Below, in pieces: positions 4,508-49,102 of a stretch of 64,000 nt of DNA; positions within the stretch are counted from its first letter, which is position 1, and each line of letters starts with the position of its first letter. A program made the translations under genes and the position numbers. Origin of the DNA: Candidatus Zixiibacteriota bacterium (lineage in GTDB: Bacteria; Zixibacteria; MSB-5A5; UBA10806; 4484-95); assembly GCA_029932605.1 (NCBI GenBank), contig JAOZPT010000001.1, positions 5,837 through 69,836 of the forward strand. Direction: 5' to 3'. Below the pieces are notes generated by a model. That model was not told the origin of the DNA and did not search any database. It saw nothing but the letters and a program-made list of their open reading frames with translations.

Positions 4508-4637
4508 TCAACCTTCCACCGGTTTGAGGTATTTTCAAGTCTCCCTTTTTTGGTTTAAAAGTAGACTTAGAATTCTTTGATTAAATCATAATATCCCTTG
4601 CCCTGAAAACTAAATATATTATATTGATGATGTAAAA

Positions 4638-4722
4638 AGATAATGGGGTGGTTGCAGACCAGAGTCAGCGGCCTGAGATTACACCCTTTGAACCTGATCT
4701 GGGTAATGCCAGCGTAGGGAAT
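4638..4722 (+). promoter_or_regulatory. TPP (thiamine pyrophosphate) riboswitch aptamer, THI element
   Basis: GGGGUG ... CUGAGA ... ACCCUUUGAACCUGAUCUGGGUAAUGCCAGCGUAGGGAA matches the conserved THI-box (Rfam RF00059-like) core. It lies in the 5' leader of the TonB-dependent receptor gene. Confidence 0.8.
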
Positions 4723-4730
4723 AATTTTAC

Positions 4731-4762
4731 GCCTCCTTCACGCTGGGAGGCTTTTTTCGTTT
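4731..4762 (+). terminator. riboswitch expression-platform terminator
   Basis: GCCTCC-TTCACGCTG-GGAGGC hairpin followed by TTTTTTCG, about 35 nt upstream of the receptor start. Confidence 0.6.
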
Positions 4763-4795: not shown

Positions 4796-7318
4796 GTGAA
4801 AGGAGCTTTTATGCTAATCACAAAAACCAAGTTTGTATTGTTAGGGTTATTACTCTTAACAGTACCATCGTTTGGCGCATCCCTTACAGGTGTTGTCACC
4901 AACGCTGAAACGGGAACGCCTGTGGCCGGTGTGCTCATTAAAATAGCCGGCACAGACTTTACTAATGTCACCGATACCGATGGTAGGTTTTTCTTTTCGG
5001 GTTTGCCTGAGGGAAAAATAACCATTGTGGCAAGTGTGATAGGGTATGAAATCACTAAAAAAAGTCTTGATTTAAAGCAGACACAGAACATTGACATACC
5101 GCTCAAACCGAAGGTTCTGAAGGGCCAGGATATAATCGTTACTGCTACCAGGGCCGAGAAGGGGAAAACACCGGCCGCTTTTTCCAACATGGGAAACGAA
5201 GATATCAAACAGCTATACTGGGCTCAGGATACACCGGTTCTTTTATCGGTTCTACCAAGTGTTTTCGCCTACTCCGATGCCGGTAATGGTGTTGGTTATT
5301 CATACTTAAAGATTCGCGGTTTCGACCAGAAACGGATCTCGGTGATGTTAAACGGTATCCCTTTAAACGATGCTGAATCGCATGAGGTTTTCTGGATAGA
5401 CCTTCCCGATTTTGCTGCTAACGTTCAGGATATTCAGGTGCAAAGAGGAGTGGGGTCATCTCTTTATGGTGCTTCATCAATGGGTGGTTCGGTAAATCTC
5501 ATCACCAACGACTTTTCAGCCATCCCGCAGATAAAATTCCAGACAGGTTACGGCAGTTACGATACCAAGAAGCTGTCAATCTCTGGCAATTCAGGTTTGA
5601 TAAATGATTCATACGTCTTCTACGGTCGGTATTCGCGGATTGAAACCGATGGTTACCGTGACAACTCCTGGACGAAAATGTATTCTTATTTCATCGGGCT
5701 GGCTCGTTATGATGAGAACATGACCTTCAAATTCAACACCTATGGCGGGCCTGAAGAATCTCACCTTGCCTATAAGGGAATCCCTTTTGAAATGCTTGAT
5801 ACTCTCAGGAAATACAACGAACTGCAGTATGAGGACGAAATCGACCATTTCAACCAGCCCCATTATGAATTTATACATGATTGGGAAATCAATGATAATC
5901 TCGAGCTGGCTAATACGATTTACTATTTCCACGGTGAGGGTTATTATAACCAGAAAAGAAATAGAAAATATATTGAGGAGTATTTCCCGGAAATCCATTC
6001 GATTATGGTTTCTGACACAACACTTGCGCCACGAGATTATTATGACCTGGATGATTTGGGATATTTTGTAGTAGATACGTCAGGATTATATATCCTCGAG
6101 AAGGTCGATCTTGTGCGTCGACGCACTGTTAAAGAATACGATTGGGGTTGGATACCAAGATTGGCACTTAAGCACAACGATGGGATGTTCACTTTTGGCG
6201 GAGAGATGCGAATTCATTCAGGTCACCATTTTGGCGAGGTGAGATGGGCAAGCGTTTATCCAGCTGGATTAGAACCCAATTCCCGTTATTACGATTATCG
6301 TGGCCAAAGCAACACTTTTACCATCTTCGCTCACGAAACTTACAACTTGACCAGTAGGCTCATTATAATGGCTAATCTCCAGTATCAAAGGCATAACTAC
6401 AAGCTTGAGAATGACAAGCGGTTTAATGTGACATTTGATCGCGATTACGACTTTATCTCACCTCGTGGAGGCATTAATTATCAGGTCAATGAAAATGTCA
6501 ACGTTTTTGTCAATTTCTCAACGACCTCGCGTCAACCTGCTTTTAAGGATATTTACGACCCGACTGATTACTGGTCAAATCCGTATTACAAAACTAACAA
6601 TTTTAACGCATCAGGCGCTGACTGGGAATATGTTGGCATGGAGTTAAAACCGGAGAAACTTTTCGACTTGGAATTTGGTGCTGATTTTAGTAAAAGGACA
6701 GATAATTTGGTCTTTAAAGGTTCTCTCAACATTTATCGTATGCAGATTAACGATGAGTTGATACCGTATGCCGGTCAGATCGATGATAATGGTTATCCTA
6801 TTTCCGGTAATGCAGAAAAAACCATTCATCAGGGTCTAGAGTTATCTTTTGATGCACTTATGCATAGCGAGTTTTCATTAACAGGCAATCTGAGTGTTAA
6901 CGATGACCATTTTGAGTCCTACAAAGAATATGGATTTGATTGGGACATCTGGGAACCGATTGAATATGACCGATCGGATAAGCGAATAGGAGGATTCCCC
7001 AAGGCGATTGCGAATTATCGGCTGGGCTATATACTGAAGAATTTGGATTTTGGTTTAAGCGGAAGATATGTTGGGGAACAATATATCGATAACGGCGAGG
7101 AATACAAGGTCGATGCTTACCACGTTTTCAATGCGGACATTTCATATGATTTGGGAAGGCTAATCGGTTTTAATTCTATGAGAATCACTTTAAGGGCAAA
7201 TAACCTTGCCGATACGAAATACGAGCAAGCTGGTTACATTGAGGAGGATGATGGATTACCTCGTTACATGGTAGGTGCCGAACGCAACTTTTTTGTTTCG
7301 CTTAGCACCGAATTTTGA
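4796..7318 (+). CDS. TonB-dependent outer-membrane receptor with N-terminal carboxypeptidase-regulatory-like domain (probable thiamine or thiamine-precursor uptake)
   Basis: 840 aa. Has a signal peptide, a CarbopepD_reg-like segment (TGVVTNAETGTPVAGVLIKI ... DGRFFF), a plug region, a long beta-barrel, and the terminal aromatic residue (STEF). The start may be the internal M at MLITKTK. The upstream TPP riboswitch supports the substrate inference. Confidence 0.85.
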   Translation: MKGAFMLITKTKFVLLGLLLLTVPSFGASLTGVVTNAETGTPVAGVLIKIAGTDFTNVTDTDGRFFFSGLPEGKITIVASVIGYEITKKSLDLKQTQNIDIPLKPKVLKGQDIIVTATRAEKGKTPAAFSNMGNEDIKQLYWAQDTPVLLSVLPSVFAYSDAGNGVGYSYLKIRGFDQKRISVMLNGIPLNDAESHEVFWIDLPDFAANVQDIQVQRGVGSSLYGASSMGGSVNLITNDFSAIPQIKFQTGYGSYDTKKLSISGNSGLINDSYVFYGRYSRIETDGYRDNSWTKMYSYFIGLARYDENMTFKFNTYGGPEESHLAYKGIPFEMLDTLRKYNELQYEDEIDHFNQPHYEFIHDWEINDNLELANTIYYFHGEGYYNQKRNRKYIEEYFPEIHSIMVSDTTLAPRDYYDLDDLGYFVVDTSGLYILEKVDLVRRRTVKEYDWGWIPRLALKHNDGMFTFGGEMRIHSGHHFGEVRWASVYPAGLEPNSRYYDYRGQSNTFTIFAHETYNLTSRLIIMANLQYQRHNYKLENDKRFNVTFDRDYDFISPRGGINYQVNENVNVFVNFSTTSRQPAFKDIYDPTDYWSNPYYKTNNFNASGADWEYVGMELKPEKLFDLEFGADFSKRTDNLVFKGSLNIYRMQINDELIPYAGQIDDNGYPISGNAEKTIHQGLELSFDALMHSEFSLTGNLSVNDDHFESYKEYGFDWDIWEPIEYDRSDKRIGGFPKAIANYRLGYILKNLDFGLSGRYVGEQYIDNGEEYKVDAYHVFNADISYDLGRLIGFNSMRITLRANNLADTKYEQAGYIEEDDGLPRYMVGAERNFFVSLSTEF

Positions 7319-7334
7319 TTAAATAAGTTCCCGG

Positions 7335-8729
7335 ATGGGTCAGAAACATTATGGTATAGAGAGCGCAATCCTGCTGATAGCGTATCTGGTATTTCTGCTG
7401 ATAGTGGGATTGCGCCTTTTTAAACGAGGGAAATCTGATGCTGATGATTATCTGGTCATGGGGCGACGGCTATCGCTTCCAGCATTTATCGCCAGCATCG
7501 TTTCCACCTGGTATGGTGGTATCCTTGGTGTTGGCGAGTATTCATACAGGCATGGTCTGTCCAACTGGTTGGTTTTTGGTTTGCCTTATTATTTATCTGC
7601 ATTTCTGTTTGCTGTATTTTTGGCTAAAAAAGCTCGGCGAAGCTATCAGCATACAATCCCCGACCAGCTTGATAAAACCTATGGAAAGACTGTCTCTGTT
7701 ATCGGGGCGGTTTTTGTATTTGTAACGACTGTGCCGGCAGCCTATGTCCTACAACTGGGTGTGCTGGCAGAAACAGCCTTCAATATACCTTTAACAATTG
7801 GTGTTGTCGGTGGAACTCTTTTTTCGACCATTTATATCTTTAGCGGGGGATTGCGTGGTGATGTCTTTACCGACAAGGTTCAATTTGCACTCATGTTCAG
7901 TTGTTTTGCTGTTATGGTTGTTGTGCTTATTTCTCGGTTTGGTGGTCTTTCTTTCCTTGAAACCAACCTTCCCGAATCTCATCTTATCTGGAGAGGTTCC
8001 AAGCCGGCATCGTATATATTCGTCTGGTATTTCATTGCCCTGGCAACTCTGGTTGAACCATCTTTCTATCAGCGTTGTTTTGCAGCCAAAAGCGAGAGGG
8101 TTGCCAGAAACGGGATTTTTGTCGCCATCGCTTTCTGGGCAATATTTGATTTTATGACCACCGCTACTGGTATGTATGCCCGGGTTTTGCTACCTGATTT
8201 AGCCAACCCGATAGCGGCCTACCCGGCTTTGGCGGTTCGTATACTACCGCGTGCTCTCCAGGCGGTGTTTTTGCTCGGTTTATTTGCTACTGTGATGTCC
8301 ACCGTTGATTCATACACATTCATTGCCGGTGCAACCGTAGGCAAAGATATCATCTGGCGACTTAAAGGAGGAGACATCACAAAAAACAGCCGATGGGGAT
8401 TGGTGGTTTCAGGAATACTGGCAGTAGTTATAGCTTTGTTTTTCCGCTCGGTTATCGATATCTGGTATTTATTTGGCACACTGGGCACCTGTGCCCTTTT
8501 GATCCCACTTGCCTCGTCGTTTTCGGAAAAATGGCGTATGACCCCAAAAATGGCGGCTATGTCCATGATATTTTCACCTCTGGTAGCCCTTATATGGATT
8601 GTACCAAATCTATTTCTCGGTATAAAATATTTCTGGGGCATCGACCCCATATATCCGGGACTTTTGACGTCAGTTATAATATACATTTTCAGTTGCAATA
8701 TAAAGAATCATTTCCACAAGCCCTTTTAG
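7335..8729 (+). CDS. sodium:solute symporter family (SSF) transporter, ThiV/PanF-like
   Basis: 464 aa, polytopic. Has the N-terminal SSF signature DDYLVMGRRLSLPAFIASIVSTWYGG. It lies 16 nt downstream of the receptor, so is probably co-transcribed under the riboswitch. Confidence 0.75.
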   Translation: MGQKHYGIESAILLIAYLVFLLIVGLRLFKRGKSDADDYLVMGRRLSLPAFIASIVSTWYGGILGVGEYSYRHGLSNWLVFGLPYYLSAFLFAVFLAKKARRSYQHTIPDQLDKTYGKTVSVIGAVFVFVTTVPAAYVLQLGVLAETAFNIPLTIGVVGGTLFSTIYIFSGGLRGDVFTDKVQFALMFSCFAVMVVVLISRFGGLSFLETNLPESHLIWRGSKPASYIFVWYFIALATLVEPSFYQRCFAAKSERVARNGIFVAIAFWAIFDFMTTATGMYARVLLPDLANPIAAYPALAVRILPRALQAVFLLGLFATVMSTVDSYTFIAGATVGKDIIWRLKGGDITKNSRWGLVVSGILAVVIALFFRSVIDIWYLFGTLGTCALLIPLASSFSEKWRMTPKMAAMSMIFSPLVALIWIVPNLFLGIKYFWGIDPIYPGLLTSVIIYIFSCNIKNHFHKPF

Positions 8730-17994: not shown

Positions 17995-18070
17995 TGGTAG
18001 CGCTACGGGGAATCGAACCCCGGTTTGATGGCTGAGAACCACCCGTCCTAGGCCACTAGACGATAGCGCC
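17995..18070 (-). tRNA. tRNA-Glu (anticodon CUC), CCA encoded
   Basis: The reverse complement gives a 7-bp acceptor stem (GGCGCUA/UAGCGCU) with an encoded CCA end. The anticodon loop is UUCUCAG with U33 and A37, and the anticodon CUC reads GAG. A D-arm is present, and there is a standard T-arm CGGGG-TTCGATT-CCCCG. Confidence 0.85.
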
Positions 18071-25258: not shown

Positions 25259-25681
25259 TTAATGCAGGTGTTTGGAGATCAGTTTAGTCATCTCGAACAT
25301 GCTGACTTTACCCTTGCCACCGAAAATCTTTCTCAGTTTATCATCAGCATTGATCATGGTCCTTTTGAACCTATCCTGTAGTCCGTGCTTTTTAATATAC
25401 GCCCAAATCTTTTTAGTGACCTGAGTCCTGGGTAGGGGCTTACTTCCGACGATTGCACTGAGTGCTAAGCTGGGTGTCCATGGCCTCATGAAAGCTGGAT
25501 TTGGTTTGCGTTTGGCTTTCTTTTTTGCTACTTTCTTCTTAGCTACTTTCTTTTTCGCTACTTTCTTCTTAGCCTTTTTTTTCTTGGCAACTTTTTTCTT
25601 GGCAACTTTTCTTTTTGTAGCTTTTTTCTTTGCTACTTTTTTCTTAGCGGTTTTCTTCCTGGCCTTTTTCTTCGCTGGCAT
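25259..25681 (-). CDS. SWIB/MDM2-domain protein with N-terminal lysine/alanine-rich histone-H1-like repeats
   Basis: The likely true start is MPAKKK (ATG 25681..25679), with AGGAGAGG upstream. About 13 tandem (V/A)AKKK(K) pentapeptide units are followed by LSAIVGSKPLPRTQVTKKIWAYIKKHGLQD ... MFEMTKLISKHL, which matches the SWIB/MDM2 fold. The ORF track extends the start to 25750. Confidence 0.7.
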   Translation of the reverse strand: MPAKKKARKKTAKKKVAKKKATKRKVAKKKVAKKKKAKKKVAKKKVAKKKVAKKKAKRKPNPAFMRPWTPSLALSAIVGSKPLPRTQVTKKIWAYIKKHGLQDRFKRTMINADDKLRKIFGGKGKVSMFEMTKLISKHLH

Positions 25682-36958: not shown

Positions 36959-37480
36959 TTGACAAAATCAACCACCGCTAAGGCATTGATACCAATCGAG
37001 ATTATAGAACGGAAGATATTCCTCCTCCGCAGGCAAAAAGTTATGATTGATAAAGACTTGGCTGAACTTTATGGTGTAACAACCGGAAACCTTAACAAAG
37101 CAGTAAGCAGAAACATTGATCGATTCCCTGAGGACTTTATGTTTCAATTAACAAAGGTTGAGTTTGAAAACTTGAAATTCCATTTTGGAATATCAAGTTG
37201 GGGTGGTACTCGAAGGTTACCCAGAGCATTTACTGAGCAAGGTGTAGCTATGCTCTCCAGTGTGCTAAGAAGTAAACGGGCTGTTCAGGTTAACATTCAA
37301 ATAATGAGGACTTTTGTTAAACTCCGGGAATTAATATCATCACATACGCAATTGGCTAAGAAGGTACAAGCTTTGGAAAAGAGATACAACTCCCAGTTCA
37401 AAGTTGTGTTTGATGCTATTCACAAATTGATTGAATCGCCCAAAAAGGATAAAAGACGTATTGGCTTTTACAGAAAGTAG
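36959..37480 (+). CDS. ORF6N-domain protein (KilA-N-related, phage-antirepressor-like)
   Basis: 173 aa. IEIIERKIFLLRRQKVMIDKDLAELYGVTTGNLNKAVSRNIDRFPEDFMFQLTKVE is the ORF6N consensus. Such proteins are typically carried on mobile or phage-like elements. Confidence 0.7.
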   Translation: MTKSTTAKALIPIEIIERKIFLLRRQKVMIDKDLAELYGVTTGNLNKAVSRNIDRFPEDFMFQLTKVEFENLKFHFGISSWGGTRRLPRAFTEQGVAMLSSVLRSKRAVQVNIQIMRTFVKLRELISSHTQLAKKVQALEKRYNSQFKVVFDAIHKLIESPKKDKRRIGFYRK

Positions 37481-37512
37481 GTCAAAACCCCTGCGGTTTT
37501 GACATATATTAT
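37481..37512 (+). terminator. rho-independent terminator after the ORF6N gene
   Basis: GTCAAAACC-CCTGC-GGTTTTGAC hairpin immediately after the stop, followed by an A/T-rich tract. Confidence 0.5.
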
Positions 37513-38190
37513 GAGATAATAGCCAATAGCACAAGGCTCGTGGCCTACGGCTCTACTAATAGCTATTACAAAATATGGCATGTATTTTTTATTCTTTTAA
37601 CTTTTCCTCAAATTCCGTAAAATAATTGTTTATAACCCTTAAATTAAATTTCGAAGGTACGGTAGGACAGACTTTTAGTCTGTCCGGTCAGACAGGAATG
37701 TCTGACCTACCAGCAATCTTGAATTTGGAGTTGTTGAGGTTTTCGTTTCACTCAGACACCGACCTACGATTACCCTCAACGATTCTGGACAGCATTTTTT
37801 GCTGACCCTACATGAATCTACACTTTTATATGATAATAGCCAATAGCACAAGGCTCGTGGCCTACGGCTCTACTAATAGCTATTACAAAATATGGCATGT
37901 ATTTTTTATTCTTTTAACTTTTCCTCAAATTCCGTAAAATAATTGTTTATAACCCTTAAATTAAATTTCGAAGGTACGGTAGGACAGACTTTTAGTCTGT
38001 CCGGTCAGACAGGAATGTCTGACCTACCAGCAATCTTGAATTTGGAGTTGTTGAGGTTTTCGTTTCACTCAGACACCGACCTACGATTACCCTCAACGAT
38101 TCTGGACAGCATTTTTTGCTGACCCTACATAAATCTACACTTTTATATGATAATAGTCAAGAGCACAAGGCTCGTGGCCTACTTATTGTT
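37504..38190. repeat. tandem direct repeat, 317-bp unit x about 2.1 copies, highly structured
   Basis: Unit starts are at 37515, 37832 and 38149. Copies 1 and 2 are near-identical (single-base differences, e.g. catgaat vs cataaat). The third copy is truncated at the stop of the convergent downstream gene. Each unit carries nested palindromes (GGTAGG[ACAGAC-TTTTA-GTCTGT]CC[GGTCAGACA-GGAA-TGTCTGACC]TACC, GTTGAGG ... CCTCAAC, AATAGCTATT). No ORF of 60 aa or more. Confidence 0.85.
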
Positions 38191-38605
38191 CCACTTTTAC
38201 TGGTTTATAAATTGCGCCGACGATCAGCCCAAGAATGATCATTTCTATCATTCCGAATAATATCCATAGCCAGAGCAATGCTCCAGGAATAGGAAATATT
38301 GGCCAGCACATAAAGGAGCCAACCACTATATAGAACAGGCCTATATAGATACCATAGCGGAATCCTTCAATGACCCCTTTGCCTTTAACACCGTAAGTAT
38401 ATATCCATACGAATAACAAGGTGAAAAAGAAGGCGCCGATATAATAAGCCCACATTTTCGAGTTCATATCCGCTTCGCTGCGAAGTAGCGTGCCGGTGAG
38501 GGGTTTGTAAATTTCGCCAAGTATCAACACATGTATGATTAAATCCATCACGAACAAAGCTACAAAGCCTACGATTACGGCATTGATGAATCTTTTCCAA
38601 TTCAT
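38183..38605 (-). CDS. hypothetical 4-TM membrane protein (DUF1761-like)
   Basis: 140 aa with four hydrophobic helices. Its stop codon lies inside the third (partial) repeat copy. Confidence 0.4.
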   Translation of the reverse strand: MNWKRFINAVIVGFVALFVMDLIIHVLILGEIYKPLTGTLLRSEADMNSKMWAYYIGAFFFTLLFVWIYTYGVKGKGVIEGFRYGIYIGLFYIVVGSFMCWPIFPIPGALLWLWILFGMIEMIILGLIVGAIYKPVKVEQ

Positions 38606-38738: not shown

Positions 38739-40340
38739 TTATAAAAGGTATTTCCTTGGGTCAGCAATAGCGCCCTCAAGGGCAGAGGCAGCCGCGGTAG
38801 CTGGAGAAGATAGATAAACTTCCGGATTCTTTGAGTTGGTTTGCCGGATTAAATCACAGCTGTTGGTAGTAAGGATTCTTTCATCTGCAGCAAGCATATC
38901 CTTGTGAGCTCCCGCACATGAGCCGCAACCCGGACTTAACATGACACACCCCGACCCAACTAAAGAACGGATATAACCTTTATCGATTGCGGCAAGATAT
39001 GTTTTGCGGGAAGCGGGTACGATTATCATCCGGGTGTCGCGGTGGATACGTCTTCCCCGGAGTATGGAGACAACCATTTCCAGGTCATCTAAACGACCAC
39101 TTGAACATCCGCATAATACAATCTGGTCTATTTTCTTACCCGCTACATCTTCCACCGGTTTAACACAATGCTTTTTATTCAGACATGCGACCTGAGGTGT
39201 GAGATATGAGACATCTATTTCGATTTCGTTTTCGTATTTGGCATTGATGTCAGGAGCAATTGGAGAGAATCTTTCTTTGGTAATTTTTTTTAAGTATCTT
39301 TGAGATACATCATCAAAGGGAATTATGGCTGATTTTGCCCCGATTTCCAAGGAGGAACTGGTTAAAATAAGTCTTTGTGGCACCGTCATTGTGGAGACCG
39401 CATCACCATAGAATTCCAGCGCCTTATAATTTATATCCTCAAAATGAAGGTCTCGGGATAATTTAAGGATGATATCTTTTGCGAATACACCCCGGGTGGG
39501 TAAACCGTTTATAACCACCTTGATAGTTTTGGGTACTTTCAGCCAGATTCTGCCCGAGGCCCATACTACCGCCATATCCAGTGGGCTTATACAGGTTGAG
39601 AAAGCACCAATACTTCCGTGGGATGTGGCTTGGTTATCGGTTGCCACAATCAGGCGGCTGGGAAGTATTAATCCCTCTTCGAGGGTAATCTGGTATGGTA
39701 TTCCCCAACCGATATCGTAAAATTTTTCTATTCTTTGTTTTTTAACAAATTTGCGGATTCTTTTGTGGACATCGGCAATCTTCCCAAATTCATTTTGTGT
39801 CCAGTCATTCAAAATTATAGTGATTTTTGAATTGTCCCACACTTTGGGAAAGCCTGTCAGTTTAAACTGTTTTATAATTTGTTCGGTATCGTCAACTGAT
39901 ACAGCTAGGTCGGGTCGGACGCTTATGACCTGACCCTCTTCTACTGATTTCAGCCCGGACTTTTTTGCCAGTAATTTTTTGATAAATGTTTCTCTTCGGG
40001 AATCTCTGCTTTTCCTGTAGGTTCCTCTTAAGTCCAGTTCAAGTTGTTCCATTTTCAGTTGAACCGGTTTTTTCTTGATGCCGTATTTGATGCGCCATTG
40101 GCGGAAGCCGGGACCGGATATCCCCAGCTCTGCTCCGGCTAATCTATCATCACCATAGCGTTCCCAGAGTTCTATTATTTTCTCATGTGAATATTTTGAG
40201 AAGCTGTATTGTCCGATATTTTTCTTCGAGCGCCAGTATGCGACCAAACGGCTGGGCACTCCATAGACCTCTGCAATTTTCTTGTCGGTTCGGTATTTCT
40301 TTTGAAGCTCTAAGAGCTCTTTTTTCTTGGGTATTTTCAC
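38739..40340 (-). CDS. aconitase-family dehydratase large subunit (LeuC/HacA type II-like) with about 110-aa N-terminal extension
   Basis: 533 aa. The core from about residue 115 (ETFIKKLLAKKSG ... VISVRPDLAVSVDD ... ATDNQATSHGSIGAF ... CGCSSG ... GCGSCAG ... VYLSSPATAAASALEGAIADPR) follows archaeal-type 3-isopropylmalate/homoaconitate dehydratase large subunits. The N-terminal part (KKIAEVYGVPSRLVAYWRSKK ... GFRQWRIKYGIKKK) is basic and HTH-like. Confidence 0.65.
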   Translation of the reverse strand: MKIPKKKELLELQKKYRTDKKIAEVYGVPSRLVAYWRSKKNIGQYSFSKYSHEKIIELWERYGDDRLAGAELGISGPGFRQWRIKYGIKKKPVQLKMEQLELDLRGTYRKSRDSRRETFIKKLLAKKSGLKSVEEGQVISVRPDLAVSVDDTEQIIKQFKLTGFPKVWDNSKITIILNDWTQNEFGKIADVHKRIRKFVKKQRIEKFYDIGWGIPYQITLEEGLILPSRLIVATDNQATSHGSIGAFSTCISPLDMAVVWASGRIWLKVPKTIKVVINGLPTRGVFAKDIILKLSRDLHFEDINYKALEFYGDAVSTMTVPQRLILTSSSLEIGAKSAIIPFDDVSQRYLKKITKERFSPIAPDINAKYENEIEIDVSYLTPQVACLNKKHCVKPVEDVAGKKIDQIVLCGCSSGRLDDLEMVVSILRGRRIHRDTRMIIVPASRKTYLAAIDKGYIRSLVGSGCVMLSPGCGSCAGAHKDMLAADERILTTNSCDLIRQTNSKNPEVYLSSPATAAASALEGAIADPRKYLL

Positions 40341-46662: not shown

Positions 46663-46690
46663 GTAGGGGCGTATTGCAATACGCCCCTAC
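46663..46690. promoter_or_regulatory. perfect 28-bp palindrome 9 nt upstream of the priA start
   Basis: GTAGGGGCGTATTG|CAATACGCCCCTAC. Candidate operator or hairpin. No clear U-tract follows. Confidence 0.4.
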
Positions 46691-46699
46691 AGATTTATT

Positions 46700-49102
46700 A
46701 TGTATGCAGAGGTAGCATTACCCGGCACAGGTTTCAAGACCTTTACATATATCATTCCCCCAAAGCTGAAATCATCGATAAGGCCGGGTGTACCGGTGAT
46801 GGTTCCTCTTCGGAATTACTCAGCGGTCGGCGTTGTAATGGCGCTGAGCGATAAGAATCCTGCAAAAGAAAAAGAGTTAAAGGAAATCAGCGGCTTAATC
46901 GATCCGGTCTTCACTTTGACAGCAAAACACCTTACTCTGATTAACTGGATTGCCGATTATTACATTTGTCCTGTTGGTGATGTCTTAAAAGCCTCATTCC
47001 CACCTGATGTAATCGGGCGGACAAAAATGAGGGTTTTTGCAAGCAAAAAGATTCCACATGAACCAAAATGGAATTATGTTTATGAAAGAATAAGGTCTAA
47101 GACCGAAGGCTATGCTTATAAAAAGAGCAAACCTATTGTTTCGGGGGTGTCAAATGCCCTTGTTAATAAAATGATAAAGGCTGGTTTTCTATACTTATCC
47201 GTTGATTACAGGGTTCAGAAACCGGTTGCCAGATTATTCGCTTGTATTAAGCCTGATATCGATATCTCATCTTCAGGGCAACAGTTATCTTCTCGAAGGA
47301 GAGAACTTCTGGAGCTTATGTGGGGTTACCCGTCAGGCATGGCTGTTTCAAAGCTGGTTGCTTTAGGTTTTTCGAGAGCCTTGATCGAGGCTATGGCAAG
47401 AGATGGATTTTTAGAGATTAAAGCACAGTACGATAGTGCGATTGTATCGCCAAAAGATGATTTCTTAAAAGATTTCGTGTTAAATAAAGACCAACAAAAG
47501 GCGGTTGAATCGATTAACGAATCGCTGGAGAAGAATATCGTCAACACTTACCTGCTTTTTGGAATAACTGGCTCTGGAAAAACGCAGGTTTATATAGAGG
47601 TTGCCCGTAAGGCATTGACCATGGGCAAATCAGTGTTGATACTTCTGCCTGAGATATCGTTAACCCCACAGGCAATTAAGAGATTTTCTGAGTCATTAAG
47701 ATGTCCAATTGGGATATGGCATTCAAGAGTCACTGTTGCTCAGCGTGTTGATATTTATAAGCGGGCCAAAAAAGGTGAGTTGAGAGTTATACTCGGTGTA
47801 AGGTCAGCGGTTTTTGCCCCGTTAGAGAATCTTGGCCTTGTGGTAATAGATGAGGAACAGGATGATTTGTATAAACAGTCGGATCCGGCGCCCCGGTATA
47901 ATGCTCGTGATGTTGCTTTGATGAAAGCGAAAATCGAAGGGGCAACCACTGTGATGGGTTCGGCAACACCGTCGATGGAGAGTTTTTACAATGCCGAAAT
48001 AGGAAAGTATAAGCTTTTAAGGCTTCCTAAAAGATATGGTGGGGCTAAACTCCCCCGTGCTTATGCTATCGATTTAAAAAACGTTGAGGTGAATAAAAAA
48101 TATTGGCCATTGTCCGAGCCTTTCATTGATAGGATTTGTAATAACATCGCTGATGGCAAACAGGTGATTATCCTTCTTAATCGCCGTGGTTACTCGGGGT
48201 TATTATTATGCAAGGGATGTGGTTATATTGCGACCTGTCCAGATTGCCAGGTGGCAATGACATATCATAAACCAGGCGGGCAATTGCGTTGTCATTTTTG
48301 TGGCCTGGCGGTTAAAGCTCCTACTATCTGTCCTGAGTGTAAGGGTGTATCCTTTGATTATCGTGGTATAGGCACCCAGAAATTAGAGGAATTGTTGATT
48401 GAGATTCTTGGTGAAAAAGGGATTATAAGAATGGATTCCGATTCCACCTCACGCAAGGGTGCCCTGGAGAAAATAATATCAACCTTTGAGGTTGGTGAAA
48501 AACCAGTTCTATTAGGTACCCGGATGGTAACAAAGGGCCATCATTTTCCTAAGGTTGGTCTGGTTGGCGTTGTTTTGGCAGATACCGGCTTGCACCTGCC
48601 GGATTTCAGGGCTTCGGAGAAAGTGTTTCAACTGTTGGTCCAGTTTGCCGGTCGTGCCGGACGGTCTGGTAACAGTGATGGCCAGGGTGAGTTTATTGTT
48701 CAAACTTTTGACCCTTCCTCGGGGATTTTAGAATTTGCCACCGGTCAGGATTATGAGTTATTTTATCGCAAAGAGCTGTTACATCGCCGTGAACTTGGTT
48801 ATCCGCCGTTTGGTAAAATAATACGAGTTGTGTTTTCAGGTAGCGATGGTTCTTATACCCGGTGGGTGGCAAGGAAATCAGCCGATGAATTTACCTCTAA
48901 TTTAAAGACGGGCAAAATATTAGGGCCAGCGCCCACAAGAGTATTTCGGCTTGGGAAAAAATATCACTACCAGGTTGTTTTAAAAGGTAAGTTTTCTGCC
49001 GATTTCAAAGAGTGGTTGAAAGGTTTTTTAGGTGGTGGGCACTCATGGCAGAAAAAGTCGGTTATTATTAAGATCGATGTCGACCCGAGGGAGATGATAT
49101 AG
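46700..49102 (+). CDS. priA: primosomal protein N-prime (replication restart helicase PriA)
   Basis: 800 aa. Walker A LLFGITGSGKTQVY, DEEQD-type motif VIDEEQD, and Cys-rich zinc-binding insertion CKGCGYIATCPDCQVAMTYH ... CHFCG ... CPEC. Confidence 0.95.
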   Translation: MYAEVALPGTGFKTFTYIIPPKLKSSIRPGVPVMVPLRNYSAVGVVMALSDKNPAKEKELKEISGLIDPVFTLTAKHLTLINWIADYYICPVGDVLKASFPPDVIGRTKMRVFASKKIPHEPKWNYVYERIRSKTEGYAYKKSKPIVSGVSNALVNKMIKAGFLYLSVDYRVQKPVARLFACIKPDIDISSSGQQLSSRRRELLELMWGYPSGMAVSKLVALGFSRALIEAMARDGFLEIKAQYDSAIVSPKDDFLKDFVLNKDQQKAVESINESLEKNIVNTYLLFGITGSGKTQVYIEVARKALTMGKSVLILLPEISLTPQAIKRFSESLRCPIGIWHSRVTVAQRVDIYKRAKKGELRVILGVRSAVFAPLENLGLVVIDEEQDDLYKQSDPAPRYNARDVALMKAKIEGATTVMGSATPSMESFYNAEIGKYKLLRLPKRYGGAKLPRAYAIDLKNVEVNKKYWPLSEPFIDRICNNIADGKQVIILLNRRGYSGLLLCKGCGYIATCPDCQVAMTYHKPGGQLRCHFCGLAVKAPTICPECKGVSFDYRGIGTQKLEELLIEILGEKGIIRMDSDSTSRKGALEKIISTFEVGEKPVLLGTRMVTKGHHFPKVGLVGVVLADTGLHLPDFRASEKVFQLLVQFAGRAGRSGNSDGQGEFIVQTFDPSSGILEFATGQDYELFYRKELLHRRELGYPPFGKIIRVVFSGSDGSYTRWVARKSADEFTSNLKTGKILGPAPTRVFRLGKKYHYQVVLKGKFSADFKEWLKGFLGGGHSWQKKSVIIKIDVDPREMI

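Follow-up and report, generated by a model that had tools for sequence, protein, structure and literature searches.

The bacterial interspersed mosaic elements (BIMEs) of Escherichia coli are the classical example of repetitive extragenic palindromes (REPs) gathered into dimers and clusters. Small RNA (sRNA) genes in tandem occur in other bacteria, and in such arrays, for instance those of the cyanobacteria and of Listeria, it is a unit of promoter, sRNA and terminator that is repeated. Here, we analyze a hairpin-rich 317-bp tandem repeat of Candidatus Zixiibacteriota bacterium (assembly GCA_029932605.1) and compare it with both kinds of system. The repeat is situated within a stretch of 64,000 nucleotides (contig JAOZPT010000001.1, positions 5,837 to 69,836 of the forward strand), which we call the window and whose numbering is used throughout; other genome loci are designated by L numbers. 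We consider it likely that the locus is a spacer between convergent genes that carries a cluster of GTAG-tagged REPs, with a REPIN (REP doublet forming hairpins) at its core, and that this spacer has undergone a local duplication that varies among strains. The feature is real and it is ordinary in kind, REP dimers being already known.

The GTAG-tagged REPs have a terminal GTAG, a stem of 6–13 bp and a short loop (Di Nocera et al. 2013, PMC3733652). The REP-associated tyrosine transposases (RAYTs) that have been characterized bind the folded single-stranded hairpin together with the GTAG and cut at nearby CT or CA dinucleotides; their cleavage and strand transfer activities have been shown in vitro, and the rules come from the enzymes of E. 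coli, S. maltophilia and Marinomonas (PMC8266576).

A REP Dimer at the Core of the Tandem Repeat

The repeat and the elements contained within it are the following.

37509..37825, strand not applicable: tandem copy 1 of the 317-bp unit
37826..38142, strand not applicable: tandem copy 2 of the 317-bp unit, with 3 differences from copy 1
38143..38182: partial copy 3, the right-hand 40-nt direct repeat (DR-R), lying against the stop of the membrane-protein gene and missing from the 1.0-copy allele
37509..37548, strand not applicable: left-hand 40-nt direct repeat (DR-L)
37826-37865: middle 40-nt repeat (DR-M), a hybrid of DR-R and DR-L
37662..37685, + strand: left arm of the REP dimer in copy 1, GTAG-G-ACAGAC-TTTTA-GTCTGT-CC (37979-38002 in copy 2)
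37686..37710, − strand: right arm of the REP dimer in copy 1, GTAG-G-TCAGACA-TTCC-TGTCTGA-CC (38003-38027 in copy 2)
37733..37780, − strand: GTTGAGG...CCTCAAC hairpin enclosing the GTAGGTCGG motif (38050-38097 in copy 2), orthologous to GTAGGTTGGGCC..GGCCAAC in the sister-species locus L134
37787..37811, − strand: third REP-like hairpin, GTAG followed by GGTCAGCA-AAAAA-TGCTGTCC, 8 bp with one mismatch (38104-38128 in copy 2)
37818..37830, − strand: sequence (..ATAAAAGTG TAG) that is probably a relic of the membrane-protein gene's ancestral 3′ end, at the copy junction; a second relic is at 38135-38147

An initial annotation, made from the letters alone, had described 2.1 head-to-tail copies of a 317-bp unit, and this description holds for positions 37509–38182. 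Tandem Repeats Finder gave an array at 37515–38182 (period 317, 2.1 copies, 99% matches, score 1315), the sole long-period array that it reported in the window. The first two copies differ at 3 of 317 positions (37513, 37514 and 37814), and the partial third copy, 90–95% identical over 40 nt, ends at 38182 against a minus-strand stop codon, TTA (38183–38185). The array takes up the 702-bp spacer between the stop codons of two convergent genes. Within this spacer GTAG and CTAC occur 15 times, as against 3.6 per kb window-wide, an approximately six-fold enrichment, and the boundaries of the units all coincide with ..GGCCTAC (GTAG when read on the minus strand).

The most conspicuous component of the unit, a multi-hairpin GGTAGG..CCTACC with CAGAC/GTCTG cores, is present as annotated at 37661–37711 and again at 37978–38028, with an expectation of 0 by chance in shuffled sequence; the GTTGAGG/CCTCAAC inverted repeat, the CAGCA-TTTTT-TGCTG hairpin and the TAATAGCTATTA palindrome of the same description are all there too. 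The multi-hairpin is a head-to-head REP heterodimer, in other words a REPIN. Its two arms, of 24–25 nt, have perfect 8–9-bp stems and 3–5-nt loops, and each begins with GTAG; they are inverted, directly abutting and non-identical, with the GTAG tags outermost, and both agree with the logo of a REP family that is described below. Each arm would fold into its own 8–9-bp hairpin, and this would give the whole its T-shaped, “multi-hairpin” appearance.

The folding of the 317-bp unit, when compared with shuffled sequences, gave z = −5.7 and −5.6 on the two strands, and such strand symmetry is the type of signal that DNA palindromes give. The same structure lends itself to a different reading, a tandemly duplicated sRNA gene, already raised in the initial annotation; under it, every unit would have a promoter within its AT-rich half and would encode a structured sRNA, the double hairpin being part of the transcript. 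The strong predicted structure (z about −5.7) speaks for such a gene, as does the AT-rich stretch upstream of the hairpins on the + strand, where there is one weak sigma-70-like match per unit (37597–37626 and 37914–37943). The region as a whole, however, has six promoter-like matches where shuffles have 6.1, no terminator follows the structured part, no promoter is paired with a terminator, and the fold is equally strong on both strands. The comparison with Rfam that had been suggested for the repeat, made at the gathering score over the whole window, produced no match at the locus, and at E ≤ 10 the locus gave noise only (SMAD5-AS1_3, Leptospira sRNA 30_255). Moreover, what is conserved beyond the species is limited to REP-like hairpins, found beside unrelated genes in many phyla with an asymmetric GTAG tag and with RAYTs nearby, and the copy number is 1.0, 1.1 or 2.1 in coexisting strains. 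We therefore regard a repeated sRNA gene as quite improbable. A tRNA and transfer-messenger RNA scan found nothing at the repeat locus. The unit had also been said to have no open reading frame (ORF); mechanical ORFs of 41–59 aa with TTG or ATG starts are in fact present inside the units, and none of them has a Pfam match.

One REP Sequence in Many Phyla

A degenerate-pattern scan for two CAGAC/GTCTG hairpins, with one genome per species, recovered at least 120 loci, where about 5 would be expected by chance according to our own uniform-composition estimate. Those listed, among which the window's own species does not figure, define a REP family, GTRG-N-ACAGACA-TTCY-TGTCTGT, that is represented in at least ten phyla. 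When 224 units from the 120 listed loci were oriented by the loop sequence alone, the resulting logo had G in 94%, T in 89%, A or G in 96% (A 58, G 38) and G in 76% at the tag, followed by N-A-CAGACA-TTC(C/T)-TGTCTG-T; the 3′ side is unconserved. The stem-closing pair is Watson–Crick in 173 of 189 units, with all four pair types represented, as against 60.7 expected under independence, and this covariation indicates that the hairpin has been maintained by compensatory change while its core sequence has remained fixed.

The family has the distribution of an intergenic element, its neighbors being unrelated housekeeping genes. Its REPs are situated between ORFs in 85 loci and, among the loci listed, the 115 ORFs that flank them belong to 94 Pfam families, none of which occurs more than three times and none of which is enriched. 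Some genomes have 4–11 REP units per 8 kb, and head-to-head dimers with 2–9-nt spacers are common. In several metagenome-assembled genomes (MAGs) of the Planctomycetota, Acidobacteriota, Omnitrophota and Verrucomicrobiota, the REP unit occurs in head-to-tail arrays with a 26–29-nt period, often at contig ends (L030, L066, L100, L127, L053, L126 and L073); such arrays yield spurious ORFs with repeated peptides, for example TDRNVCVT. The same pattern also caught an untagged palindrome pair, ACAGACTGAnnGGTCTGTTTGTAnCAGACCnnnnGGTCTGGTAnCAAGG, in Actinomycetota (L020, L051, L064, L078, L090, L101–L105 and L129). This pair has no GTAG tag, is conserved in Nocardioides and other Actinomycetota and resembles a double operator; it was set aside as unrelated.

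How much of the 317-bp unit belongs to the family was revealed by a blastn comparison of the whole unit with the 120 listed loci, in which the matches were restricted to unit positions 180–232. One further locus, L144 from a JGI metagenome, carries the dimer with 49 of 50 nt identical; its neighbors there are a glycosyltransferase-like ORF on one side and an ORF of 231 aa that has no annotation on the other, and the rest of the unit is absent. Judged by these alignments, the shared module is the 50-nt dimer only, and the remainder of the unit is local spacer. Searches of phage and plasmid collections with the unit gave chance matches of 23–38 nt only. A miniature inverted-repeat transposable element (MITE) of 317 bp was consequently rejected, since no dispersed whole-unit copies were found in the phages, the plasmids or the 120 listed loci beyond the 50-nt dimer. 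The earlier suggestion of a MITE-like or protein-binding element comes close for the 50-nt double hairpin, a REPIN of a family that adjoins RAYT genes, and fails for the 317-bp unit, only some 50 nt of which are shared elsewhere.

In the window itself, GTAG-tagged perfect hairpins were found at two intergenic sites only, 37477–38128 and 46663–46690. The second, a perfect 12-bp palindrome bounded by GTAG/CTAC (GTAGGGGCGTATTGCAATACGCCCCTAC), lies in the upstream spacer of a priA-like gene (46700–49102), and its 28 nt are identical in an Ignavibacteria MAG (L061, ~1034–1061). By this shared sequence it looks like a second REP family common to different phyla. The statement that nothing comparable occurs elsewhere in the window is accordingly correct for the unit and for its CAGAC hairpins, and must be amended for this additional tagged palindrome.

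RAYT Genes beside the REP Family

With the RayT of E. coli as a tblastn query, Y1-transposase-like genes were found beside the REPs in Zixibacteria (L012), Planctomycetota (L099, Thermoguttaceae), Acidobacteriota (L054) and Omnitrophota (L126), and the use of the newly found RAYTs as queries added a match in Verrucomicrobiota (L073, Coraliomargarita). A gene of RAYT type (Y1/HUH) hence adjoins the REP family at five loci in five phyla. Those of L012, L099, L054 and L126 match Pfam Y1_Tnp with E = 1e-6 to 1e-11. Against the NCBIfam model for REP-associated tyrosine transposases (NF047646), for which the curated cut-off is 80 bits, the scores were 83.8 (L012), 87.8 (L099) and 79.9 (L054), and the IS200 model remained far below its own cut-off. 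The RAYTs beside this one REP family are only 24–48% identical to each other.

The RAYT gene of L054 has REPs on both sides. The Zixibacteria loci L012 and L152 each have head-to-head dimers at a distance of 0.6–1.4 kb from the RAYT gene, and a family of RAYTs of this kind is present in the Zixibacteria. The right arm of the window dimer (37686–37710) is identical to one arm of the L012 dimer, at positions 2110–2134 of L012, ~640 nt from the Zixibacteria RAYT gene. Both the window and L012 have an aconitase-like gene in the vicinity, but these are only 35% identical and no claim of synteny is made. Near the RAYT genes of L012 (618–640 and 2042–2096) and L152 (4463–4729) there are in addition mixed clusters of other GTAG-tagged hairpin types, for example GTAGCGGAGGTCTTCAGACCTCC, and other Zixibacteria RAYT genes (L146, L150 and L153) are ~0.1–1 kb from a different REP, GTGG-GTCGGGAAT-TCCA-ATTCCCGAC.

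The REP family has the anatomy of the substrates of RAYTs (TnpA-REP, Y1 HUH) in the characterized systems, and by analogy with these GTAGGTCAGACATTCCTGTCTGACC is a putative single-stranded substrate for a RAYT of the L012 type (P0038). The action of such an enzyme would account for the dispersal of the 50-nt dimer to unrelated intergenic sites and, by the same analogy, may have been responsible for the copies in the window.

Copy-Number Alleles and the Growth of the Array

Contigs of the same species (Zixibacteria bacterium 4484_95) were obtained by an exact-sequence lookup of the two flanking proteins and by a metagenome scan for the double hairpin. The copy number is polymorphic among near-identical strains. 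L004 has a 702-bp spacer, as in the window, with slightly different single-nucleotide polymorphisms; L005, L007, L003 and L143 have a 385-bp spacer that corresponds to 1.1 copies; and L145 has a 1.0-copy allele, the unit once with a single 40-nt repeat, with flanks 97.5% identical to those of the window. The copy-to-copy junction, GGCCTAC followed by GGCTCTAC (..GGCCTAC followed by GGCTCTACTAATAGC), occurs in five independent contigs: the window, L004, L006, L009 and L010. The 317-bp repeat is therefore a recent, strain-variable duplication of the convergent-gene spacer; a recent duplication was one of the two readings, beside ongoing function, that the first annotator had drawn from the near-identity of the copies.

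These contigs also bear on the possibility that a single-copy region was falsely expanded during assembly, an error that would have undone the annotation. Short-read metagenome assemblies can mis-resolve repeats that exceed the k-mer, and several assemblies do have the 1.1-copy form. Yet the five contigs with the junction come from different samples and assemblers, three of them (L006, L009 and L010) break inside the second copy, as a true repeat would cause, and the copies have copy-specific differences. An artefact is in our opinion hardly credible, but the exact copy number, two or more, is uncertain.

In the 1.1-copy form, a 277-nt segment lies between two 40-nt direct repeats that are ~85% identical. 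These repeats were considered as a target-site duplication and rejected as such, because the 1.0-copy allele contains the unit with one 40-nt repeat only. The DR-M of the window is of DR-R type in its 5′ part and of DR-L type in its 3′ part; such a hybrid is the product expected of an unequal crossover, and it fits a crossover between DR-L and DR-R. We infer that the array expands and contracts as the 40-nt direct repeats on either side of the unit recombine unequally or cause slippage during replication.

An alternative would dispense with homologous recombination altogether: a RAYT, as a Y1 HUH enzyme, might cut and rejoin single-stranded DNA at the GTAG/CTAC bounds of the unit and so generate head-to-tail copies. 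The unit boundaries, all at ..GGCCTAC, would be natural for such a process, as would the density of GTAG and CTAC in the spacer (15 in 702 nt vs 3.6 per kb), the L009 junction with its ~5 nt of homology and the cleavage and strand transfer that RAYTs perform in vitro (PMC8266576). There is, however, no RAYT gene to be found in the window, the characterized enzymes cut at CT or CA beside the hairpin and not within GTAG (PMC8266576), the hybrid DR-M is consistent with ordinary unequal crossing-over in a homology of 40 nt, and the REP content of the spacer suffices to explain its GTAG enrichment. RAYT-catalyzed amplification is in our view improbable.

The explanation that we prefer, a REP-bearing spacer duplicated locally in some strains, has several observations to contend with. 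In L009, the middle repeat is wholly of DR-R type and DR-L differs near its end, so that ~5 nt (CCTAC) are left for a homologous crossover; this junction needs a later conversion or some other mechanism. Relative to the 1.0-copy allele, the 1.1-copy allele has 64 additional nt at the stop of the membrane-protein gene; the 40-nt repeat of the far end and the end of the gene are each copied in this insert, and a further 9–10 nt have no placed source. An attempt to derive the 1.1 allele from the 1.0 allele in one step failed on this insert, and the first 40-nt direct repeat is unexplained by any single simple event. The REP content of the window is low, with two GTAG-hairpin sites as opposed to the hundreds per genome in classical REP hosts, and tblastn with the RayT of E. 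coli and three of the newly found RAYTs located no RAYT gene within its 64 kb.

The Ancestral Spacer and Its Genes

The genes on either side of the repeat, and a tagged hairpin just outside it, are as follows.

36959..37480, + strand: ORF6N-domain gene, 173 aa (Pfam PF10543, E = 3.5e-33), a neighbour outside the repeat
37477..37503, + strand: GTAG-tagged 9-bp hairpin, GTAG followed by GTCAAAACC-CCTGC-GGTTTTGAC, terminator-like; it overlaps the ORF6N stop TAG (37478-37480) and is outside the unit
38183..38605, − strand: membrane-protein gene, 140 aa, with no Pfam family

The wider neighborhood is ordinary chromosome, with hutU, valS and genes for an aconitase-like and a HIT-family protein; the ValRS of the window has exactly the sequence of OQX92532.1, from candidate division Zixibacteria bacterium 4484_95. 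In a sister species (L134 and L135), in which the membrane protein is 86% identical, the order valS-HIT-aconitase-membrane gene-...-hutU is kept, and the slot between hutU and the membrane gene contains a KAP NTPase gene and no ORF6N. In L134, this gene (5593–7920) encodes a KAP-family NTPase of 775 aa in the place occupied by ORF6N at 36959–37480 of the window. The slot has the look of a small, variable hotspot with REP-like hairpins at its borders.

The sister species also discloses the history of the unit. In L134, the membrane gene ends ..AAAAGAG TAG, with its stop inside the GTAG tag, and is directly followed by a perfect 9-bp hairpin, GGACAGCATACCATGCTGTCC, and further downstream by a second hairpin, GTAGGTTGGGCC..GGCCAAC. 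The two align with the minus-strand GTAGGGTCAGCAAAAAATGCTGTCC (37787–37811) and with the GTTGAGG..CCTCAAC hairpin of the window, and an orthologue of the third hairpin lies directly 3′ of the membrane gene, with the stop codon within the GTAG tag, in L134 and in L145 alike. Since these hairpins align, the unit has as its right-hand part what was formerly the 3′ flank of the membrane gene. In the 1.0-copy allele of L145 the gene ends as it does in the sister species (the compared ends of L145 and L134 are CATAAAAGAGTAG), and each unit appears, from a short sequence match, to keep this former end, ..ATAAAAGTG TAG. In the 1.1 and 2.1 alleles the additional 64 nt have changed the C-terminus of the membrane protein from KPIKE* to KPVKVEQ*. 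The 317-bp period would have arisen by local duplication of a spacer segment together with the final codons of the membrane gene, and would not be a property of the element. The hairpins themselves probably act as 3′-end structures for the two convergent genes, in the protection of the mRNA or in stopping transcription.

The initial annotation had also proposed an attachment or recombination site of the adjacent mobile-type gene, ORF6N, and to this may be added a cis element of a mobile cassette with that gene. The slot is indeed variable, with ORF6N here and the KAP NTPase in L134 and L135, the GC content is lower over ORF6N than over hutU, and the ORF6N stop codon falls within a GTAG-tagged hairpin. 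Nonetheless, the sister species lacks ORF6N and yet has the orthologous REP-like hairpins directly 3′ of the membrane gene; no ORF6N homologue was found at L144 or at any of the 120 listed family loci; and there is no integrase or recombinase gene nearby. Such a site is highly improbable.

A few further features of the window deserve mention. The adjoining aconitase-family protein (38739–40340, − strand) has a basic-rich N-terminal extension of ~115 aa that is missing from its 35% identical homologue in L012 and that, as a guess by eye, could be helix-turn-helix-like. A tandem repeat at 25516–25673 has a period of 15/30/45 nt (CTTTCTTCTT(A/T)GCTA...) and ~71–79% matches. Ordinary features include a thiamine pyrophosphate (TPP) riboswitch at 4634–4738 (+ strand; gathering score exceeded at 65.1 bits) and a gene for tRNA-Glu(CTC) at 17998–18070 (− strand).

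Discussion

The lesson for annotation is that a conspicuous, structured tandem repeat in an uncultivated phylum can prove to be a REP cluster and not an RNA gene or an attachment site. Such repeats break short-read assemblies and generate spurious ORFs, and hence are relevant to the quality of MAGs. The allele series of 1.0, 1.1 and 2.1 copies illustrates how a REP-rich spacer is rearranged, to the point of rewriting the C-terminus of a neighboring protein. As a by-product, the analysis has yielded a REP family with a simple signature in the Zixibacteria, Ignavibacteria, Acidobacteriota, Planctomycetota, Verrucomicrobiota, Chloroflexota and others; a search of the literature for the hairpin sequences found no paper that describes it.

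The chief remaining interest is the presence of one REP sequence in so many phyla. A single REP sequence, almost unchanged in at least ten phyla beside RAYTs of 24–48% identity, together with a GTAGGGGCGTATTGCAATACGCCCCTAC common to this Zixibacteria genome and an Ignavibacteria MAG, would point either to an ancient, frozen recognition code or to movement between phyla. It is conceivable, if on balance unlikely, that the REP/RAYT systems of sediment and soil bacteria are very ancient with such a frozen code, or else pass from phylum to phylum, and that the 317-bp units and the 64-nt insert are footprints of RAYT strand transfer. Were this so, it would contradict the usual picture of REPINs as lineage-specific and vertically inherited, and the GTAG-bounded units and the 64-nt insert would represent the reshaping of a gene end by RAYT strand transfer.

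How does the locus compare with the systems already described? With the tandem sRNA arrays it shares head-to-tail units of a few hundred bp, a strong predicted structure and an intergenic position; it differs from them in that its promoter and terminator signals are at chance level, it matches no RNA family, its unit is not conserved past the species and its copy number varies among strains. With the REPIN–RAYT systems it has in common that two inverted REPs make up one non-autonomous unit (Bertels and Rainey 2011, PMC3116915), and RAYT genes of the NF047646 family adjoin the same REP family at the five loci. The differences are that no cognate RAYT was found in the 64-kb window, that REPIN–RAYT systems are usually described as lineage-specific and vertically inherited whereas this REP core extends over at least ten phyla with RAYTs only 24–48% identical, and that the spacer between the arms is here 0–2 nt instead of the tens of nucleotides of the Pseudomonas REPINs. 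The perfect 8–9-bp stems and short loops are like those of the group 3 REPs, such as the 23-nt REP of S. maltophilia (PMC8266576).

A close counterpart is the class of GTAG-tagged REPs (PMC3733652). The stem ACAGACA/TGTCTGT and the loop TTCY are absent from the text and supplements of that study, Zixibacteria is outside the phyla that it surveyed, and the copy density in our window is very low. The shared features are a short palindrome tagged at one end with GTAG/GTRG, a stem within 6–13 bp and a short loop, head-to-head dimers a few bp apart with non-identical arms, a position downstream of ORFs and between convergent genes, and clusters that are tandemly repeated together with their flanking DNA.

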